From a virus (Duplodnaviria > Heunggongvirae > Uroviricota > Caudoviricetes): DNA of 22,175 bases. Both the position numbers and the translations under genes were made by a program. Where the stretch lies: IMG/VR virus record IMGVR_UViG_2534682074_000009; one strand, given 5' to 3'. Below are positions 3,238 through 10,549 of the stretch, piece by piece; the first letter of the stretch is position 1; each line of letters begins with the position of its first letter. The notes under the pieces are model-generated. The model saw only the letters and a list, made by a program, of their open reading frames with translations, made no database searches and was not told the origin of the DNA.

Positions 3238-3509
3238 GTATTCGTATTGAAATTGGCGAACGTTATGTCGTTACCAGTGACAGCTTTCAGTTTATTCTCC
3301 ACGAGAAAAAGAGAGCGGAAAGCGGTAAAAACGCCGGTCAGGAATGGCTGGCGGTGGTTGGTTATTACCCGAAATTAGGCCAGCTCGTTTCCGGCCTGAT
3401 GCATCACGATATTCTGACCGGAAGCGCAAAATCTTTTGCTGATTTAAACGCGCAGGTTGAGCAACTCAGCAAGCGTTGTTCAGAGGCTTTTGGCTCATAT
3501 GGCCGTTAA
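3234..3509 (+). CDS. Hypothetical early protein (P2 orf83 position)
   Basis: 91-aa ORF whose start overlaps the previous stop and whose end overlaps the gene A start. Confidence 0.55.
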   Translation: MSIRIEIGERYVVTSDSFQFILHEKKRAESGKNAGQEWLAVVGYYPKLGQLVSGLMHHDILTGSAKSFADLNAQVEQLSKRCSEAFGSYGR

Positions 3510-5775
3510 AGCCTCCGGGCGTTTTGTCCCTCCGTCAGCATTTACCGCAGGCACCGGTAAGGCGTTTACCGGTGCTTATGCATGGAACGCGCCACGCGAG
3601 GCTGTCGGGTGCGAAAGACCTCTTACACGTGACGAGATGCGTCAGGTGCAAGGTGTTTTATCCACGATTAACCGCCTGCCTTACTTTTTGCGCTCGCTGT
3701 TTACTTCACGCTATGACTACATCCGGCGCAATAAAAGCCCGGTGCACGGGTTTTATTTCCTCACATCTACTTTTCAGCGTCGTTTATGGCCGCGCATTGA
3801 GCGTGTGAATCAGCGCCATGAAATGAACACCGACGCGTCGTTGCTGTTTCTGGCAGAGCGTGACCACTATGCGCGCCTGCCGGGAATGAACGACAAGGAG
3901 CTGAAAAAGTTTGCCGCCCGTATCTCATCGCAGCTTTTCATGATGTATGAGGAACTCTGCGATGCATGGGTTGATGCGCATGGTGAAAAAGAATCGCTGT
4001 TTACGGATGAGGCGCAGGCTCACCTGTATGGTCATGTTGCTGGCGCTGCACGTGCTTTCAATATTTCCCCGCTCTACTGGAAAAAATACCGTAAAGGACA
4101 GATGACCACGAGGCAGGCATATTCTGCCATTGCCCGCCTGTTTAACGATGAGTGGTGGACTCATCAGCTTAAAGGCCAGCGTATGCGCTGGCATGAGGCG
4201 TTACTGATAGCTGTCGGGGAGGTCAATAAAGACCGTTCTCCTTATGCCAGTAAACACGCCATTCGTGATGTGCGTGCGCGCCGCCAGGCAAATCTGGAAT
4301 TTCTTAAATCGTGTGACCTTGAAAACAGGGAAACCGACGAGCGCATCGACCTTATCAGTAAGGTGATGGGCAGTATTTCTAATCCTGAAATTCGCCGGAT
4401 GGAGCTGATGAACACCATTGCCGGTATTGAGCGTTACGCCGCCGCAGAGGGTGATGTGGGGATGTTTATCACGCTGACCGCGCCGTCAAAGTATCACCCG
4501 ACACGTCAGGTCGGAAAAGGCGAAAGTAAAACCGTTCAGCTTAATCACGGCTGGAACGATGAGGCATTTAATCCAAAGGATGCGCAGCGTTATCTCTGCC
4601 GTATCTGGAGCCTGATGCGCACGGCATTCAAGGATAATGATTTACAGGTCTACGGTTTGCGAGTCGTCGAGCCACACCACGACGGAACGCCGCACTGGCA
4701 TATGATGCTTTTTTGTCATCCACGCCAGCATAACCAGATTATCGAAATCATGCGTCGCTATGCGCTCAAAGAGGATGGCGACGAAAGAGGAGCCGCGCGA
4801 AACCGTTTTCAGGCAAAACACCTTAACCGGGGCGGTGCTGCGGGATATATCGCGAAATACATTTCAAAAAACATCGACGGCTATGCACTGGATGGTCAGC
4901 TCGATAACGACACCGGCAGGCCGCTGAAAGACACTGCAGCGGCTGTTACCGCATGGGCGTCAACGTGGCGCATTCCGCAATTTAAAACGGTTGGCCTGCC
5001 GACAATGGGGGCTTACCGTGAACTACGCAAATTGCCTCGCGGCGTCAGCATTGCTGATGAGTTTGACGAGCGCGTCGAGGCTGCACGCGCCGCCGCAGAC
5101 AGTGGTGATTTTGCGCTGTATATCAGCGCGCAGGGCGGGGCAAATGTCCCGCGCGATTGTCAGACTGTCAGGGTCGCCCGTAGTCTGTCGGATGACGTTA
5201 ACGAGTACGAGGAAGAAGTCGAGAGAGTGGTCGGCATTTACGCGCCGCATCTCGGCGCGCGTCATATTCATATCACCAGAACGACGGACTGGCGCATTGT
5301 GCCGAAAGTTCCGGTCGTTGAGCCTTTGACTTTAAAAAGCGGCATCGCCGCGCCTCGGAGTCCTGTCAATAACTGTGGAAAGCTCACCGGTGGTGATACT
5401 TCGTTACCGGCTCCCACACCTTCTGAGCACGCCGCAGCAGTGCTTAATCTGGTTGATGACGATGTTATCGAATGGAATGACCCGGAGGTCGTGAGGGCGC
5501 TCAGGGGCGCATTAAAACACGACCGGAGAACGCCAAACCGTCAGCAAAGAAACGGAAGCCCGTTAAAACCGCATGAAATTGCACCATCGGCCAGACTGAC
5601 CCGGTCGGAACGATTGCAAATTACCCGTATCCGCGTTGATCTCGCTCAGAACGGTATCAGGCCGCAACGATGGGAGCTTGAGGCGCTGGCGCGTGGCGCG
5701 ACCGTAAATTATGACGGGAAACCTTTCACTTATCAGGTCGCTGATGATTGGCCGGGATTTTTGTTACCCATTTGA
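3499..5775 (+). CDS. A: Rolling-circle replication initiation endonuclease (P2 gpA-like)
   Basis: About 758 aa. Contains the histidine motif PHWHMMLF and the paired catalytic tyrosines in GYIAKYISK, characteristic of P2 A-type initiators. Start 3499 (MAVKASGRF) chosen within the longer six-frame ORF. Confidence 0.9.
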   Translation: MAVKASGRFVPPSAFTAGTGKAFTGAYAWNAPREAVGCERPLTRDEMRQVQGVLSTINRLPYFLRSLFTSRYDYIRRNKSPVHGFYFLTSTFQRRLWPRIERVNQRHEMNTDASLLFLAERDHYARLPGMNDKELKKFAARISSQLFMMYEELCDAWVDAHGEKESLFTDEAQAHLYGHVAGAARAFNISPLYWKKYRKGQMTTRQAYSAIARLFNDEWWTHQLKGQRMRWHEALLIAVGEVNKDRSPYASKHAIRDVRARRQANLEFLKSCDLENRETDERIDLISKVMGSISNPEIRRMELMNTIAGIERYAAAEGDVGMFITLTAPSKYHPTRQVGKGESKTVQLNHGWNDEAFNPKDAQRYLCRIWSLMRTAFKDNDLQVYGLRVVEPHHDGTPHWHMMLFCHPRQHNQIIEIMRRYALKEDGDERGAARNRFQAKHLNRGGAAGYIAKYISKNIDGYALDGQLDNDTGRPLKDTAAAVTAWASTWRIPQFKTVGLPTMGAYRELRKLPRGVSIADEFDERVEAARAAADSGDFALYISAQGGANVPRDCQTVRVARSLSDDVNEYEEEVERVVGIYAPHLGARHIHITRTTDWRIVPKVPVVEPLTLKSGIAAPRSPVNNCGKLTGGDTSLPAPTPSEHAAAVLNLVDDDVIEWNDPEVVRALRGALKHDRRTPNRQQRNGSPLKPHEIAPSARLTRSERLQITRIRVDLAQNGIRPQRWELEALARGATVNYDGKPFTYQVADDWPGFLLPI

Positions 5776-6033
5776 GTAAAAATACAGCGTGATTTTATAT
5801 GTCTTTGAATGGATTATGCGAAGCACCTCTAAGGTAGATGAGGAGCAATAGCGTGTTGAATCAGAAGGCTAAATTGTATTGAATCGTTAGCATGTAATTG
5901 AAGGCAGCTATTTGATTCGAGTCATAAAAGAGCATCTATTTCGGTTAATAAAACCATTGCGAGTGACTTTATGTCGAAGCATAATTCATCTCGAGCGAAG
6001 TCTTGCTAGTCTTTCATCGGATTGATGACGGGC

Positions 6034-6067
6034 GCAAAAAAACCACCCTGGCAGGTGGTTTTTTTGT
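6034..6067. terminator. Bidirectional intrinsic terminator
   Basis: Seven A (6036-6042), stem ACCACCCTG / CAGGTGGT, seven T (6059-6065). Can terminate plus-strand transcripts leaving A and the minus-strand mini-ORF transcript. Confidence 0.55.
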
Positions 6068-6077
6068 TTGAAGCATA

Positions 6078-6191
6078 CTAAAGAAAAATACTTACATGGA
6101 TATTACTGACGTTTACTGACAAACCACTCGGACTACCATATGGATAGCCAAAGAGGGCCAGAACGAGAATGCAGTAATAGCACTTCTTCAT
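6078..6191 (-). CDS. Candidate 37-aa hydrophobic small protein (MKKCYYCILVLALFGYPYGSPSGLSVNVSNIHVSIFL)
   Basis: Absent from the ORF track because it is short. Perfect AGGAGG 4 nt upstream of the ATG (reverse complement of 6196-6201); stop at 6078-6080 is directly followed on the minus strand by the 6034-6067 terminator. Hydrophobic N-terminal half. Confidence 0.3.
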   Translation of the reverse strand: MKKCYYCILVLALFGYPYGSPSGLSVNVSNIHVSIFL

Positions 6192-6847
6192 ATCGCCTCC
6201 TGTAAGCAGAGGGCAATTTCCGCCGATATATGCGCTTCTAAGGCGGAGTGACTATTGAGCGAAGTCTTGCCCTGAAATAATGCTCTGTTTAAACGCAAAG
6301 TGATCTGGCATATCACCGAACAGAGGACCTGAACAACACAACATATAGTATGTCGTTGTTTCTGGTTGCATTTTATGTTGTGTAATACTGGTTTTGCATC
6401 AAGGATGTTTGAGCTTTTTTTGATATAGCTCAAAGTAAAAAGCAGAGACTACGGATGATAAGGTCTTGAAAGCAATGTAAATTTTTTAAAGTTGTGAGTG
6501 GCTAGAAATGCACAGTTTCAATATGGCGGATTTAAACAAGTAATTAAAAATAGCGACATAAATTCAAATAAAATCATTAAGTTGCGTTTTCTGTGGAAAC
6601 TTCGGTGACTCTGAAATTTTCTTTTAGTGTCGCTGAGGTTTAACAACTCGCTGCGCAAGTAGTTAGTGTTTTTTTAATTCAATATTCTGATTTATAAGGT
6701 TTTTTATAAATCGTGGGCTGGTTGCGCGTATTCATCTCGTGTTATCAGCAAAGATAAGCTCTATATGCAGAACTGAATGCATATATGATGTCGAAAATGT
6801 TATGGGAAAACGTGGATTAGTGTTATAGTAATGGCTGAAAAACAGCC

Positions 6848-6907
6848 TTGACATAAAATAACAATTGTGATATGGCTGTGCATACTTAACTTTTTTAACG
6901 TAGGAGG
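6848..6907 (+). promoter_or_regulatory. Candidate sigma70 promoter and RBS for the metallopeptidase gene
   Basis: Consensus -35 TTGACA (6848-6853), 17-bp spacer, weak -10 TATGGC (6871-6876); AGGAGG (6902-6907) 5 nt before ATG 6913. Confidence 0.35.
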
Positions 6908-6912
6908 CAACC

Positions 6913-7398
6913 ATGAGCTATGCAGCTAAAAAACTGCTTGACCGCTATTGGGATCGCCGACTACCTGTCGATCCGTTTAAGCTTGCTAAAGCGTGGGGTG
7001 CTCGTGTTGAAGCACTTGAGGAATCGGCTTATAACAACGATGGGTTAAGCGGTCTGGCTGTCATCAAAAAGGGTGTCCATAGGATTTATTTTGATTCTAG
7101 TGAACATTCTAATCGTCAACGTTTTACTGTTGCACACGAGTTAGGTCATCATGTGCTGGGGCATACCCAGGACGGAGAGTACCATCGGGATAATGTCGGG
7201 AATTATTCAACAGGTGCTCGTGATTACCGTGAGGTTGAAGCAAACAAGTTTGCTGCTGAGTTGTTAATGCCTGAGTCTGCTATACGTCAATTGGTATCCA
7301 GAGAAGGTATTGATAGCACTTTGAGATTAGCAAGCATCTTTAATGTATCAGAAGCCGCTATGCATTGGCGCTTAAAGAGCTTAGGAATGGCTTATTAA
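6913..7398 (+). CDS. ImmA/IrrE-family (COG2856 / DUF955-like) zinc metallopeptidase, stand-alone
   Basis: 161 aa. HEXXH motif in FTVAHELGHHVLGH and the downstream EANKFAAELLMP signature typical of this family. Strong SD. No adjacent XRE/HTH partner ORF is visible. Confidence 0.8.
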   Translation: MSYAAKKLLDRYWDRRLPVDPFKLAKAWGARVEALEESAYNNDGLSGLAVIKKGVHRIYFDSSEHSNRQRFTVAHELGHHVLGHTQDGEYHRDNVGNYSTGARDYREVEANKFAAELLMPESAIRQLVSREGIDSTLRLASIFNVSEAAMHWRLKSLGMAY

Positions 7399-7425
7399 TT
7401 AGCCTTTAACTTTTAACCTGTTTAA

Positions 7426-7464
7426 AATCACCTTTACGTTTGTACATGTAAGGGTGATTTTTTT
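7426..7464 (+). terminator. Intrinsic terminator between the peptidase and membrane-protein ORFs
   Basis: 11-bp stem AATCACCTTTA / TAAGGGTGATT (one G-U pair), loop containing palindrome TACATGTA, then seven T (7458-7464) abutting ATG 7465. Confidence 0.5.
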
Positions 7465-8064
7465 ATGGCTGATATTGATTTATCTGGACAGTCCCCAGAG
7501 CAAGGAACCACTCCTAAGGGCGATTTAGATCCTGATATCCTTATAAGGCGAGATAGACGGGATGGTATAGAGCGTAGAAGTATGCGATTAGTGCTCTCTG
7601 CCGTTGTGCTTTGTTTTGCTTGTACATTTCTATGGCAGGGGCTTAACTTTGCTTTGGCTGTTGGAAATGGCTTGCTGGAAGCGAAAAGCAGTATTGCCGC
7701 AGCGATAACACAAAAAGTAGATACACAAACTTGTGTTTCAGCAGAAAAATGTTCTGCTTTATCTTCGGATCCGAAGATGGCTGATGAGAGGATAACACCA
7801 TCTTCAGACACTAATAAAGTTAGAAAATCTATTTCTGGTTTATCCACCGATTGGTTATCGGCCAGTTCTCTAATAGCTATTGTTGCATTCATCCTTGGTG
7901 TGGGTTTAACTTTGCTTTTGACTCTTCTTAAATCAGCATTTCAACACCCGACAGATAAAGACTTTAGAACAAAGTCGACATCTAATACTATTGAGTTGGC
8001 CACGCCAATCAGTGAATTAATAATTGGTGTTCTGAATATAATTAAAGACAAACTATCTAAGTAA
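7465..8064 (+). CDS. Predicted small membrane protein with two hydrophobic helices
   Basis: 199-codon ORF in AT-rich DNA. Two ~22-residue hydrophobic segments (LVLSAVVLCFACTFLWQGLNFALAV and LIAIVAFILGVGLTLLLTLL). Start uncertain (weak SD; internal Met at 7582 possible). Followed by the 8107-8139 terminator. Confidence 0.45.
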   Translation: MADIDLSGQSPEQGTTPKGDLDPDILIRRDRRDGIERRSMRLVLSAVVLCFACTFLWQGLNFALAVGNGLLEAKSSIAAAITQKVDTQTCVSAEKCSALSSDPKMADERITPSSDTNKVRKSISGLSTDWLSASSLIAIVAFILGVGLTLLLTLLKSAFQHPTDKDFRTKSTSNTIELATPISELIIGVLNIIKDKLSK

Positions 8065-8106
8065 AGCATTAGTTGTGATTTTTTATTGGTTTTAGTGATA
8101 ATACAT

Positions 8107-8139
8107 CTCCAGTACTTATTGTTACTGGAGAGTATTTTT
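8107..8139 (+). terminator. Intrinsic terminator in the convergent gap
   Basis: Stem CTCCAGTA / TACTGGAG (8107-8114 / 8123-8130), 8-nt loop, then agtattttt. Sits between the plus-strand membrane ORF and the stop of the minus-strand 313-aa gene. Confidence 0.45.
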
Positions 8140-8146
8140 AGTCGTT

Positions 8147-9088
8147 TTATATTTTTAATGTTAGTGAATGATATTCACGAGAGTTCACGTTCGATGTGAT
8201 GTAATCGGGGGCGTTAACACCAAGAATCGCAACGAGTAATCGGCAAATTAAAGCCTGCATTTGTTGTAATATGTCATCTCCATATTGATAATTGTTAATA
8301 GTGGTAAAGCCAAGTGGTTGACCATGAAACATAGCTTCATGAAAGTTTTCATTGCGGATGTTTGTAATGTTTTTTTTGCCTGTAACCCATGATGGTCGTG
8401 GTATTCCATAAGTTTTGCAGATCCACTTCAAGCGCCTGGAGTGATTTAGAGTCTTTTCTGTACACTTGTTCTTTTCTGCCCATGTTAAAGCAAAGCAACT
8501 ATCCAGTGCCATATAAAGATACTGGAATTTTTCGAAGCTAAGGTATTGTGGGTTTTGGGATAAAAATAGTGCATGCACTATTGCTGCTATATTTATTGGT
8601 GCGTGTTTGGTTTTTGTCTCGCTAGACATGTATTTGAGTGCTAATTCTATAACCTCTTTTTCAGAGCACTTGACCAGAATAAAGTCAGTTAATTTGCTGG
8701 GTTTTATTGGGGTTGCGTCTAAAAAACCGGCATCAGTAGTTGTTAATCTTATCCCTTTGAAAAAAGACAGACACCACACAGCAAAATTGAGAGTTTCTAG
8801 TGAAGATGTATTTTTTAATTTTAGTGAGTGTGTTTTGGGTAAACCAAATACTCGTTGGCTAAAAGGCATTGTGGATATGCCTCCATTGAGGTTATATACT
8901 TCTTGGTTTCCTGGGTATATCCAACCGTTAATAACATTTCTGTGATTGTTTATAAGATTTGTTTTTTCCGCTAGACCGGGTAAAGTAAGTAAAGAAAAAT
9001 CATCAGTTTCAACGTTAACTTCTACTGGATAGTATCCAAACTCAGCTTCAATATCATTGGATTGCTGTTCGTCAACTTTACCTTGCAT
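8147..9088 (-). CDS. Hypothetical 313-aa cargo protein; possible HEPN-like (R-x4-H) domain
   Basis: Long uninterrupted ORF in AT-rich DNA; GGAG 6 nt upstream of the ATG. Same orientation and position relative to cos that tin/old occupy in P2. Single motif R245-N-E-N-F-H250 in a predicted helical C-terminal half. No family confidently recognised. Confidence 0.7.
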   Translation of the reverse strand: MQGKVDEQQSNDIEAEFGYYPVEVNVETDDFSLLTLPGLAEKTNLINNHRNVINGWIYPGNQEVYNLNGGISTMPFSQRVFGLPKTHSLKLKNTSSLETLNFAVWCLSFFKGIRLTTTDAGFLDATPIKPSKLTDFILVKCSEKEVIELALKYMSSETKTKHAPINIAAIVHALFLSQNPQYLSFEKFQYLYMALDSCFALTWAEKNKCTEKTLNHSRRLKWICKTYGIPRPSWVTGKKNITNIRNENFHEAMFHGQPLGFTTINNYQYGDDILQQMQALICRLLVAILGVNAPDYITSNVNSREYHSLTLKI

Positions 9089-9326
9089 ACATTGCTCCGG
9101 TCAAAAATAGGCTCGATAATTCTCGTAAGCCTATCATGTTCGCAAAGTATCCATTCCTGTGGATTTTGTAAATTTAAGTTGATTTGTCATTAAATAAGCC
9201 GTTGCATGCAACAAGTGAATGTTTTTGCATGCGTCGGGGATGTCCGTTCAGGCTGCGTGCGGTCAGGACTGGTGCGGATCCATAGTATCTATGCAACTGC
9301 ATTAAAACCGCCCCATGAAGCGGGCG

Positions 9327-9345
9327 GGCGAGGCGGGGAAAGCAC
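9327..9345. other. cos site (19-nt cohesive-end sequence, P2-type)
   Basis: GGCGAGGCGGGGAAAGCAC matches the P2 cohesive-end sequence as I remember it, at the expected place between the cargo region and Q, followed by a G/T-rich packaging region (9346-9480). Confidence 0.55.
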
Positions 9346-9487
9346 TGCGCGCTGGCGGTGGTGCTGATTTTATTTTTTCAGCGTCTGAGCGCGTCGTGAA
9401 GGCGCTTAGTCTGCCCGTTGAGGCGTTGGTGTGTCTGCGGGGTGTTTTGTGCGGTGGTGAGCGTGTGAGGGCGTGATGACGGGGTGT

Positions 9488-9509
9488 AAAAAAGCCGCCC
9501 GCAGGCGGC
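9488..9509 (-). terminator. Intrinsic terminator downstream of Q
   Basis: On the minus strand: stem GCCGCC / GGCGGC with 4-nt loop followed by six T (six A at 9488-9493 on plus), 6 bp after the Q stop. Confidence 0.5.
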
Positions 9510-9514
9510 GATGT

Positions 9515-10549
9515 TCAGCCGTTGTCAGTGTCCAGTGAGTAGTTTTTAAAGCGGATGACCTCCTGACCGAGCCAGCCGTTTATCTCGCGGATCCTGTCCT
9601 GTAGCGGGATAAGCTCATTGCGGACAAAGACCTTTGCCACTTTCTCAATATCACCCAGCGACCCGACGTTCTCCGGCTTGCCGCCCATCAACTGAAAGGG
9701 GATGCGGTGCGCGTCCAGCAGGTCAGCGGCGCTGGCTTTTTTGATATTAAAAAAATCGTCCTTCGTTGCCACTTCACTGAGCGGGATAATTTTAATGCCG
9801 TCGGCTTTCCCCTGCGGGGCATAGAGAAACAGATTTTTAAAGTTGTTGCGGCCTTTCGACTTGACCATGTTTTCGCGAAGCATTTCGATATCGTTGCGAT
9901 CCTGCACGGCATCGGTGACGTACATGATATATCCGGCATGAGCGCCGTTTTCGTAATACTTGCGGCGGAACAGCGTGGCCGACTCATTCAGCCAGGCAGA
10001 ATTAAGGGCGCTGAGATATTCCGGCAGGCCGTACAGCTCCTGATTAATATCCGGCTCCAGCAGGTGAAACACGGAGCCGGGCGCGAAGGCTGTCGGCTCG
10101 TTGAAGGACGGCACCCACCAGTAAACATCCTCTTCCACACCACGGCGGGTATATTTTGCCGGTGAGGTTTCCAGTCTGATGACCTTACCGGTGGTGCTGT
10201 AACGCTTTTCCAGAAACGCATTACCGAACACCAGAAAATCCAGCACAAAGCGGCTGAAATCCTGCTGCGAAAGCCACGGATGCGGGATAAACGTTGAAGC
10301 CAGAATATTGCGTTTGACGTAAATCGGTGAGCTGTGATGCACGGCAGCACGCAGGCTTTTTGCCAGACCGGTAAAGCTGACCGGTGGCTCATACCATCTG
10401 CCGTTACTGATGCACTCGACGTAATCCAGAATGTCACGGCGGTCGAGTACCGGCACCGGCTCGCCAAAGGTGAATGCTTCCATTTTCGGGGCGCTGGCGG
10501 TGATTGTTTTTGCCGCAGGTCGCGGTGTTTTCCCTTTTTTCTTACTCAT
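9515..10549 (-). CDS. Q: Portal protein (P2 gpQ-like)
   Basis: 344 aa, first late gene next to cos on the minus strand, overlapping the P stop; size and position as in P2. Confidence 0.9.
   Translation of the reverse strand: MSKKKGKTPRPAAKTITASAPKMEAFTFGEPVPVLDRRDILDYVECISNGRWYEPPVSFTGLAKSLRAAVHHSSPIYVKRNILASTFIPHPWLSQQDFSRFVLDFLVFGNAFLEKRYSTTGKVIRLETSPAKYTRRGVEEDVYWWVPSFNEPTAFAPGSVFHLLEPDINQELYGLPEYLSALNSAWLNESATLFRRKYYENGAHAGYIMYVTDAVQDRNDIEMLRENMVKSKGRNNFKNLFLYAPQGKADGIKIIPLSEVATKDDFFNIKKASAADLLDAHRIPFQLMGGKPENVGSLGDIEKVAKVFVRNELIPLQDRIREINGWLGQEVIRFKNYSLDTDNG

Follow-up and report, generated by a model that had tools for sequence, protein, structure and literature searches.

The stretch of DNA analysed here, a 22,175-nucleotide (nt) viral record (IMG/VR IMGVR_UViG_2534682074_000009; hereafter, the window), is a P2-like prophage of Escherichia coli, and its element of interest is a pair of plus-strand genes encoding a small zinc peptidase of the M78 family and a protein with two predicted transmembrane helices (the two-TM protein), separated by a hairpin that ends in a run of T residues. 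Together with a convergent minus-strand gene for a 313-amino-acid (aa) protein, these are the three genes found between replication gene A (gpA) and the portal gene (Table 1), and the GC content of this cargo is 33-44%, compared with 50-58% for the phage backbone. E. coli O39:H21 (NZ_CP062865.1) carries a copy of the region at 100% identity, with the same genes annotated by PGAP. The gpA-portal (A-Q) interval of P2-like phages is a published defence hotspot, housing old and tin in P2 itself (PMC9122126; PMC9519451), and the peptidase/two-TM cassette has been included among its arrangements (PMC9122126). An earlier note on this DNA had described the membrane open reading frame (ORF) as prophage cargo lying downstream of a peptidase, and both parts of that description hold, with the cargo in a known defence hotspot and the peptidase identified as M78 (PF06114).

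The two genes were consistently found together. In all 40 loci compared, a 158-164-aa M78 peptidase was encoded directly upstream of the two-TM gene on the same strand, across two-TM protein identities of 24-100%; these loci were drawn from IMG/VR, metagenomes, and exact-protein look-ups and are carried by P2-like phages, plasmids, and islands of Enterobacterales, Vibrio, and Acinetobacter. The peptidase and the two-TM protein are an obligate conserved pair reminiscent of Zn-peptidase toxin-antitoxin modules such as RosmerTA, a point that had escaped the earlier note. The spacer between them is nearly always 66-74 nt long (66 nt in the window). The A-Q hotspot of diverse P2-like phages (gpA identity 29-99%) accounts for 24 of the 40 loci, and the other 16 lie outside it. 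Among the contexts are an Enterobacter plasmid, on which the pair occurs with a ShosA-like gene, a Vibrio island with recombinases on its flanks, and an Acinetobacter element. On a Serratia chromosomal island (locus L005), a canonical RosmerTA system is present about 1.8 kb downstream of the pair (8463-10246; RmrT 8.5e-59, RmrA 2.7e-145), so that the interval from the phn to the nrdD operon holds two different M78-peptidase modules next to each other.

Within E. coli, the cassette was present in 50 of 5,426 complete genomes (~1%), as well as in three phage records and three plasmid records. Both genes were free of pseudogene flags in 40/40 of the rows listed for these 50 genomes and were intact in the three loci inspected directly, the length variants H79 and H84 among them. 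Fusion of the two products by stop-codon read-through was considered and rejected, since the shared frame was found in the window and in locus L002 and not in L005, and is therefore not conserved.

The peptidase carries the motifs H75-E-L-G-H79 and E107-x-E-A-N-x-F-A-A-x-L-L-M-P, and the corresponding signatures, HExxH and E..AN.FAA..LMP, were invariant in 18 of 18 diverse peptidase sequences aligned. It belongs to PHROG 87 (metallo-protease), and its best PDB matches were CapP (7t5t, 7.6e-7) and IrrE. It matched the PADLOC capP profile at 1.1e-30 over profile positions 8-153 of 242, while its match to RmrA profiles (best 6e-17) was confined to the peptidase part (e.g., positions 146-267 of 363). 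Upstream of the gene, the -35 element and spacing of the candidate promoter are kept in those Enterobacterales loci that have the same upstream region; a consensus promoter scan did not flag 6848-6877, the -10 element being poor. The sequence GTAGGAGGC(A/T)ACCATG is conserved 5' of the peptidase start in Enterobacterales loci. No LexA box was found upstream of the peptidase in any locus, and therefore there is no sign of direct SOS control. Abutting the candidate -35 element is a small hairpin at 6833-6847 (GGCTG-AAAAA-CAGCC), and GGCTG recurs just past the -10 element (6873-6877). This hairpin and motif, conserved in Enterobacterales loci, could be the operator of some regulator.

For the downstream gene, the earlier note had reported a 199-codon ORF with two hydrophobic segments and had questioned its own call, on the grounds that AT-rich DNA inflates hydrophobic codons and that an ORF overlaps it on the minus strand (7434-7892). 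Both segments are recovered by hydropathy, with Kyte-Doolittle 19-residue means reaching 2.1 for aa 41-66 and 2.8 for aa 131-156, and by AlphaFold2, which places long helices at residues 23-88 and 116-159 (mean predicted local distance difference test score 65 overall, 80-89 in the TM helices) and leaves the N-terminal tail and the middle loop disordered. The doubt over base composition can be set aside for the following reasons: (i) a database search returned 55 homologue clusters with a common architecture throughout, from Escherichia, Salmonella, Klebsiella, Citrobacter, Enterobacter, Serratia, Pectobacterium, Yersinia, Vibrio, and Acinetobacter; (ii) in the plus frame, differences at the three codon positions were 0.32/0.20/0.58 (all pairs of 13 sequences); and (iii) near-identical E. 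coli copies had six synonymous and five non-synonymous segregating sites (pN/pS 0.26), all five of the latter falling in the N-tail or the loop. Therefore, ORF 7465-8064 is a genuine coding gene under purifying selection. The minus-strand ORF is broken in 7 of 11 diverged homologues, all of which keep the plus frame open, and this alternative is refuted. Across the near-identical E. coli loci (>99% identity; L001, L010-L016, L023, L026, and L041-L043), the two-TM gene showed 11 segregating sites and eight haplotypes, as against one synonymous site in the peptidase gene.

The two-TM family is genuine and small, only 57 clusters (at 50% identity) and no domain fusions having been retrieved when 1.84 billion representative proteins were searched exhaustively with a profile. 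Conservation is highest in TM2 and in the cytoplasmic C-terminal helix. The TM2 segment AFILGVGLTLxLTLLK is invariant or nearly so down to ~25% overall identity, and the C-terminal helix, with an invariant Pro181 and a conserved P-[LI]-S-E-L motif, is, the TM helices aside, the only cytoplasmic segment kept across all clades. The loop is hypervariable in length and sequence, with a Cys90/Cys96 pair kept in Enterobacterales, and conservation of the N-tail stops outside the Enterobacterales. Because Arg/Lys clusters are located ahead of TM1 (RRDRRDGIERRSMR) and past TM2, and the Cys pair lies in the loop, the sequence suggests an N-in/C-in topology with a periplasmic loop. A second start at Met40 (7582) was considered and rejected; no convincing Shine-Dalgarno (SD) sequence precedes it, and the Met is not kept in the Vibrio and Acinetobacter clades. 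The shorter database entries of the family (144-168 aa) look like alternative start calls. PHROG 8096, to which the protein belongs, is labelled 'unknown function', and a profile search of PDB gave chance-level matches only.

The earlier note had also pointed out a hairpin with a seven-T tract directly before the ATG of the two-TM gene, and this feature was confirmed. The core hairpin consists of 12 pairs, including two G-U pairs, and the stem can be lengthened by pairing of A7424-7427 with T7458-7461; the T run is exactly seven residues long and touches the start codon. An 86-nt context containing the hairpin folds at -25.1 kcal/mol, compared to -10.7 +/- 2.7 kcal/mol for 200 shuffled versions (z = -5.35; 0/200 as good), and the core hairpin by itself at -14.1 kcal/mol. 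The locus thus has the stable stem-loop with a U-rich tract directly after it by which Rho-independent terminators are recognized. Rfam returned no match at the gathering threshold, and the sub-threshold chance matches lay away from the hairpin.

Hairpins at this position were present in 19 of 21 distinct homologous spacers; in each, 5-8 nt, consisting only of T in most loci, lie between the stem and the ATG. The stems differ in sequence between clades: most Enterobacterales have a TCACC/GGTGA stem, in which AAAATCACC and a variable part face a variable part and GGTGATTTTTTT; a distant clade has a GCCACC/GGTGGC stem (AAAGCCACC / GGTGGCTTTTTT); and Vibrio has a GCCCTCA/TGAGGGC stem (AAGCCCTCA / TGAGGGCTTTTTA). 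In an alignment of 20 spacers, 91.5% of cells were in standard pairs, compared to 29-68% when the partner was slid by 1-3 columns, and 6 of the 14 stem pairs had changed on both sides. Neither the observed pairing nor the covariation score was reached in 500 shuffles. SD-like purines (GGTGA, GGTGG, or GAGGG) occur in the 3' arm in every hairpin clade, ~7-10 nt before the ATG, and because of this placement the hairpin looks like an intrinsic terminator that also sequesters the ribosome-binding site. In locus L021 (3960-3989), and similarly in L018 and L028, a promoter-like TTTAGA-18-GATAAT overlaps the hairpin with its -10 inside the 3' arm, and alleles of this type could produce a near-leaderless two-TM transcript.

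Several known systems resemble parts of this arrangement. RosmerTA comprises a Zn-peptidase antitoxin and diverse toxins, and a delta-rmrA mutant was unobtainable (10.1101/2022.05.11.491447); RmrT of Gordonia phage Kita is membrane associated, depolarises cells, and protects against coliphages (PMC10440598). Like RosmerTA, the present cassette is a two-gene module of an ImmA/M78 peptidase and a partner with no recognisable enzymatic domain, found on phages and in defence islands. However, RmrA is ~360-400 aa long with an N-terminal Xre helix-turn-helix (HTH) domain, whereas the peptidase here has 161 aa and is HTH-less in all 18 loci aligned, its partial 6e-17 match standing against the full-length 2.7e-145 of the L005 RmrA control. 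The two-TM protein matches no RmrT model in PADLOC (L005 RmrT control, 8.5e-59), the peptidase always comes first, and the hairpin between the genes is undescribed for RosmerTA in the literature found. The peptidase domain is closest to that of CapP and has the same catalytic motifs, but the protein ends at residue 161, without the HTH/GAF region described as sensing single-stranded DNA (ssDNA) in CapP/IrrE (PMC13228613). Unlike in CapP/CapH, IrrE/DdrO, and ImmA/ImmR, the peptidase is paired with a membrane protein and not with a DNA-binding substrate. No ORF of >= 25 aa between gpA and the peptidase was called as a CapH-like HTH repressor, PGAP is blank there, and the only plus-strand gene downstream of the peptidase is that of the two-TM protein, with no immune operon.

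In type III toxin-antitoxin (TA) systems, the ratio of antitoxin to toxin is set by a Rho-independent terminator located between the two (PMC3401426). The cassette shares with ToxIN and its relatives a terminator between an upstream candidate neutraliser and a downstream candidate toxin under one promoter; it differs in that the upstream element is protein-coding rather than composed of RNA repeats, the downstream product is a membrane protein and not an endoribonuclease, and the hairpin appears additionally to mask the ribosome-binding site. Type III-like RNA repeats were rejected, as Tandem Repeats Finder detected no array in 5700-9100 and its sole match was at 9248-9277. Class II holins and abortive-infection or exclusion effectors (RexB, HK97 gp15) are, like the two-TM protein, phage-encoded helical proteins of the inner membrane, and class II holins share the predicted two TMs, both ends cytoplasmic, and charged C-terminus. 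The two-TM protein is larger (199 aa, with a ~60-residue periplasmic loop), has no sequence or fold match, is encoded in the gpA-portal hotspot rather than a lysis cassette, and is always paired with a peptidase. We would provisionally class the cassette as a variant of the Zn-peptidase TA/defence kind outside any named family, because it differs from RosmerTA in both components and from CapP/CapH in having neither the sensor region nor a CapH partner. Rousset et al. list it in their Table S5A as 'Peptidase_M78 + hypothetical (+ hypothetical)' (WP_000119270 + WP_001161722; PMC9122126); in their supplements, including the table of evaluated systems, these accessions and 'M78' occurred only in the locus-listing tables S1 and S5. 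We found no paper that characterises the cassette, and, as far as could be found, a terminator/SD mask is undescribed for such modules.

With RosmerTA and type III TA as precedents, the most economical interpretation is that the pair forms a RosmerTA-like TA or abortive-infection cassette, carried as P2-like prophage cargo, in which the peptidase neutralises a membrane effector; our confidence in it is about evenly poised between acceptance and doubt. It draws on the pairing in 40/40 loci, the invariant catalytic motifs, the hairpin covariation, the SD placement, the consensus SD sequence and conserved -35 element of the peptidase gene, the low GC content of the cargo, and the defence-type contexts. 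The sequence comparisons establish that the gene is real, that the pairing is obligate, that the catalytic motifs are intact, that the hairpin is conserved and covaries, and where the SD sequence and the cassette itself are located; we infer in vivo termination and translational masking, the membrane topology, toxicity, which partner neutralises which, the trigger, and an anti-phage phenotype. In the proposed mechanism, a single promoter 5' of the peptidase gene would drive both genes, and the cytoplasmic peptidase, translated from a consensus and unpaired ribosome-binding site, would be produced in excess. The hairpin and its U7 tract would halt most transcripts just ahead of the second ATG, and in transcripts that read through, the SD sequence would be held base-paired, so that only trace amounts of the two-TM protein are made. 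This protein would lodge in the inner membrane, its N and C termini both cytoplasmic, and may oligomerise via its near-invariant Gly-rich second helix, depolarising or permeabilising the membrane. The peptidase would neutralise it, most probably through cleavage in a cytoplasmic segment; as the site of cleavage or recognition, the best candidate is the C-terminal helix with its conserved P-[LI]-S-E-L motif. Phage infection would then free the effector and abort the infection, possibly through loss or inhibition of the peptidase or through increased read-through.

A number of points weigh against this interpretation. The peptidase lacks both the HTH domain that defines RmrA and the GAF domain found in CapP, and the two-TM protein had no match in Pfam, PADLOC (E <= 0.1), or NCBIfam, nor did its model have anything at E <= 0.001 in a Foldseek search of PDB or an informative structural neighbour. 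The consensus terminator scan did not call the 7424-7464 hairpin in the window, nor those of L021 and L024, although it did call the Vibrio counterpart (L008, 5974-5996); our guess is that some of the T residues required by the scan are taken up by the A/T-extended stem. In two Acinetobacter-type loci, with spacers of 27-30 nt, the hairpin is missing, and thus the pair can do without it. The roles could also be the other way round, as the Xre-peptidase component of PD-lambda-2 is itself toxic (PMC9519451). It is also questionable whether an effector kept at trace level could act fast enough after infection. Finally, Rousset et al. did not include the cassette in the P2-hotspot systems that they tested, and the family is known here from sequence alone.

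A variation on the same interpretation is that the M78 protease, having no sensor, is a proteolytic antitoxin that continuously clips a dedicated pore-forming toxin of the inner membrane, the terminator/SD lock not only setting the ratio but itself being the infection sensor. Phage antitermination, transcription-translation uncoupling, or RNA remodelling would then open the lock and let the effector flood the membrane. We think this unlikely.

Among the rival explanations, one reverses the role of proteolysis: the two-TM protein would be an inert precursor, as in gasdermin-like systems, and the peptidase would sense infection and cut the N-tail or C-terminal helix to release a pore. In its favour, the catalytic motifs are strictly conserved, the relatives ImmA, IrrE, and CapP are signal-activated site-specific proteases (PMC13228613), and the two-TM protein has disordered cytoplasmic tails beside conserved helices. 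However, the double lock on expression would be needless for an inert precursor, the peptidase has no evident sensor domain, since the ssDNA-binding HTH/GAF region of CapP and IrrE is absent from it, and the N-tail is not conserved beyond Enterobacterales. We regard protease activation, too, as unlikely.

Somewhat harder to maintain is a role in superinfection exclusion or another membrane function, in which the two-TM protein blocks DNA injection or alters the envelope of the lysogen, the peptidase processes either that protein or a phage protein, and the hairpin merely limits the burden of a membrane protein. A cytoplasmic ImmA-type protease is not known to have a role in injection blocking. 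The cassette is prophage cargo of a type that lysogens typically express, its product is a small inner-membrane protein with a predicted periplasmic loop whose Cys pair is conserved in Enterobacterales, and toxicity of the two-TM protein is only a prediction; yet conservation peaks at TM2 and the cytoplasmic C-terminal helix rather than in the hypervariable periplasmic loop, and copies of the module are also found next to TA/Abi-type systems outside prophages, on plasmids and chromosomal islands. Both forms of this explanation seem distinctly unlikely to us.

The opposite polarity, with a toxic peptidase that cleaves a host or phage target and a membrane protein serving as its regulator, anchor, or antitoxin, has a precedent in the toxicity of the PD-lambda-2 Xre-peptidase component alone (PMC9519451), and the chain in PDB 7t5t is named 'CapP toxin'. 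We nevertheless judge it improbable. A consensus SD sequence for the first gene and a terminator plus masked SD sequence for the second favour a large excess of peptidase, which is the wrong ratio for a stoichiometric neutraliser, and the complete E. coli genomes with the cassette keep an intact, highly conserved peptidase gene.

Least probable are two independent transcription units, the hairpin ending the peptidase mRNA and a two-TM promoter inside it yielding a leaderless or near-leaderless mRNA, for although the L021-type spacers have the promoter-like site that overlaps the hairpin, its -10 equivalent in the window is TGTAAG, without the critical A2 and T6, the consensus scan flagged no promoter-like site in 7300-7465, none was reported in the GCCACC- or Vibrio-clade spacers, and substitutions in the 3' arm go with compensating ones in the 5' arm, which points to selection on pairing rather than on a -10 box. 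The earlier note had left a choice between independent expression of the two genes and read-through gating of a membrane effector. The former is disfavoured because the T tract abuts the ATG, leaving no space for a promoter and leader, and because the 66-nt spacer has no conserved promoter and the pair is linked in 40/40 loci; the latter fits better, with translation apparently masked as well.

The convergent 313-aa gene does not belong to the module. It was considered as a third component and rejected, being absent from most loci and belonging to a far larger, independent family; the only loci in which it stands beside the pair are those of the near-identical E. coli set and L020/L031, in the latter at 49% identity. 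Its product is a candidate for a separate single-gene defence system. Between the stop codons of the two-TM and 313-aa genes, the 8106-8131 hairpin is a perfect 9-bp inverted repeat (TCTCCAGTA...TACTGGAGA). An IS4-family insertion in strain CUWW10 lies between the 313-aa and portal genes and is irrelevant to the pair.

Two further regions of the hotspot drew attention. Directly 3' of gpA, 5776-~6650 is a segment of ~750-900 nt with no ORF >81 aa and no annotated feature, kept at 86-100% in 150 complete E. coli genomes whichever cargo comes next (e.g., AAA ATPase cargo, L044), and no Rfam match in it was above threshold. On the other side, the cos-proximal region beside the portal gene (9300-9514) contains GC-rich terminator-like hairpins at 9308-9327 and 9494-9511 (minus strand), and near it 9248-9277 is a 15-nt tandem duplication.

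Table 1. Features of the peptidase/two-TM cassette and its surroundings, in window coordinates.
Feature	Positions	Strand	Remarks
Replication gene A (gpA)	3457-5775	+	PF05840, E = 8.5e-124
Candidate operon promoter	6848-6877	+	-35 TTGACA at 6848-6853, 17-nt spacer, weak TG-preceded -10 TATGGC(T)
Consensus SD AGGAGG of peptidase gene	6902-6907	+	Unpaired; conserved
Stand-alone M78 (ImmA/IrrE/CapP-type) zinc metallopeptidase, 161 aa	6913-7398	+	PF06114, E = 3.8e-21
Hairpin with T7	7424-7464	+	Intrinsic-terminator-like, putatively sequestering the ribosome-binding site; conserved; covarying
A tract of hairpin	7424-7427	+	
5' arm	7428-7439	+	
Loop	7440-7445	+	
3' arm	7446-7457	+	
SD-like GGGTGA in 3' arm	7452-7457	+	
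T tract	7458-7464	+	
Predicted two-TM inner-membrane protein, 199 aa	7465-8064	+	PHROG 8096; ATG at 7465, stop at 8064, 199 codons
TM1 of two-TM protein (aa 41-66)	7585-7662	+	Hydropathy
TM2 of two-TM protein (aa 131-156)	7855-7932	+	Hydropathy; holds AFILGVGLTLxLTLLK
C-terminal amphipathic helix of two-TM protein (aa 181-198)	8005-8058	+	AlphaFold2
Bidirectional terminator-like hairpin	8106-8131	both	Scan: 9 pairs, loop of 8
HEPN-like protein, 313 aa	8147-9088	-	Invariant R245-x4-H250 motif; neighbour, outside the module
Portal gene	9515-10549	-	PF04860

At 1.2 kb and present in ~1% of complete E. coli genomes, the cassette should be easy to clone and test, and its membrane partner is one that PADLOC, Pfam, and NCBIfam do not recognise. 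If it is a functional defence or TA module, it adds a small, compact family to the catalogue. If the proposed mechanism is true, an ImmA-type protease needs no DNA-binding domain to work with a membrane effector, and the cassette would be a clean natural example of one hairpin that fixes the ratio of two products by both ending transcription and covering the ribosome-binding site.

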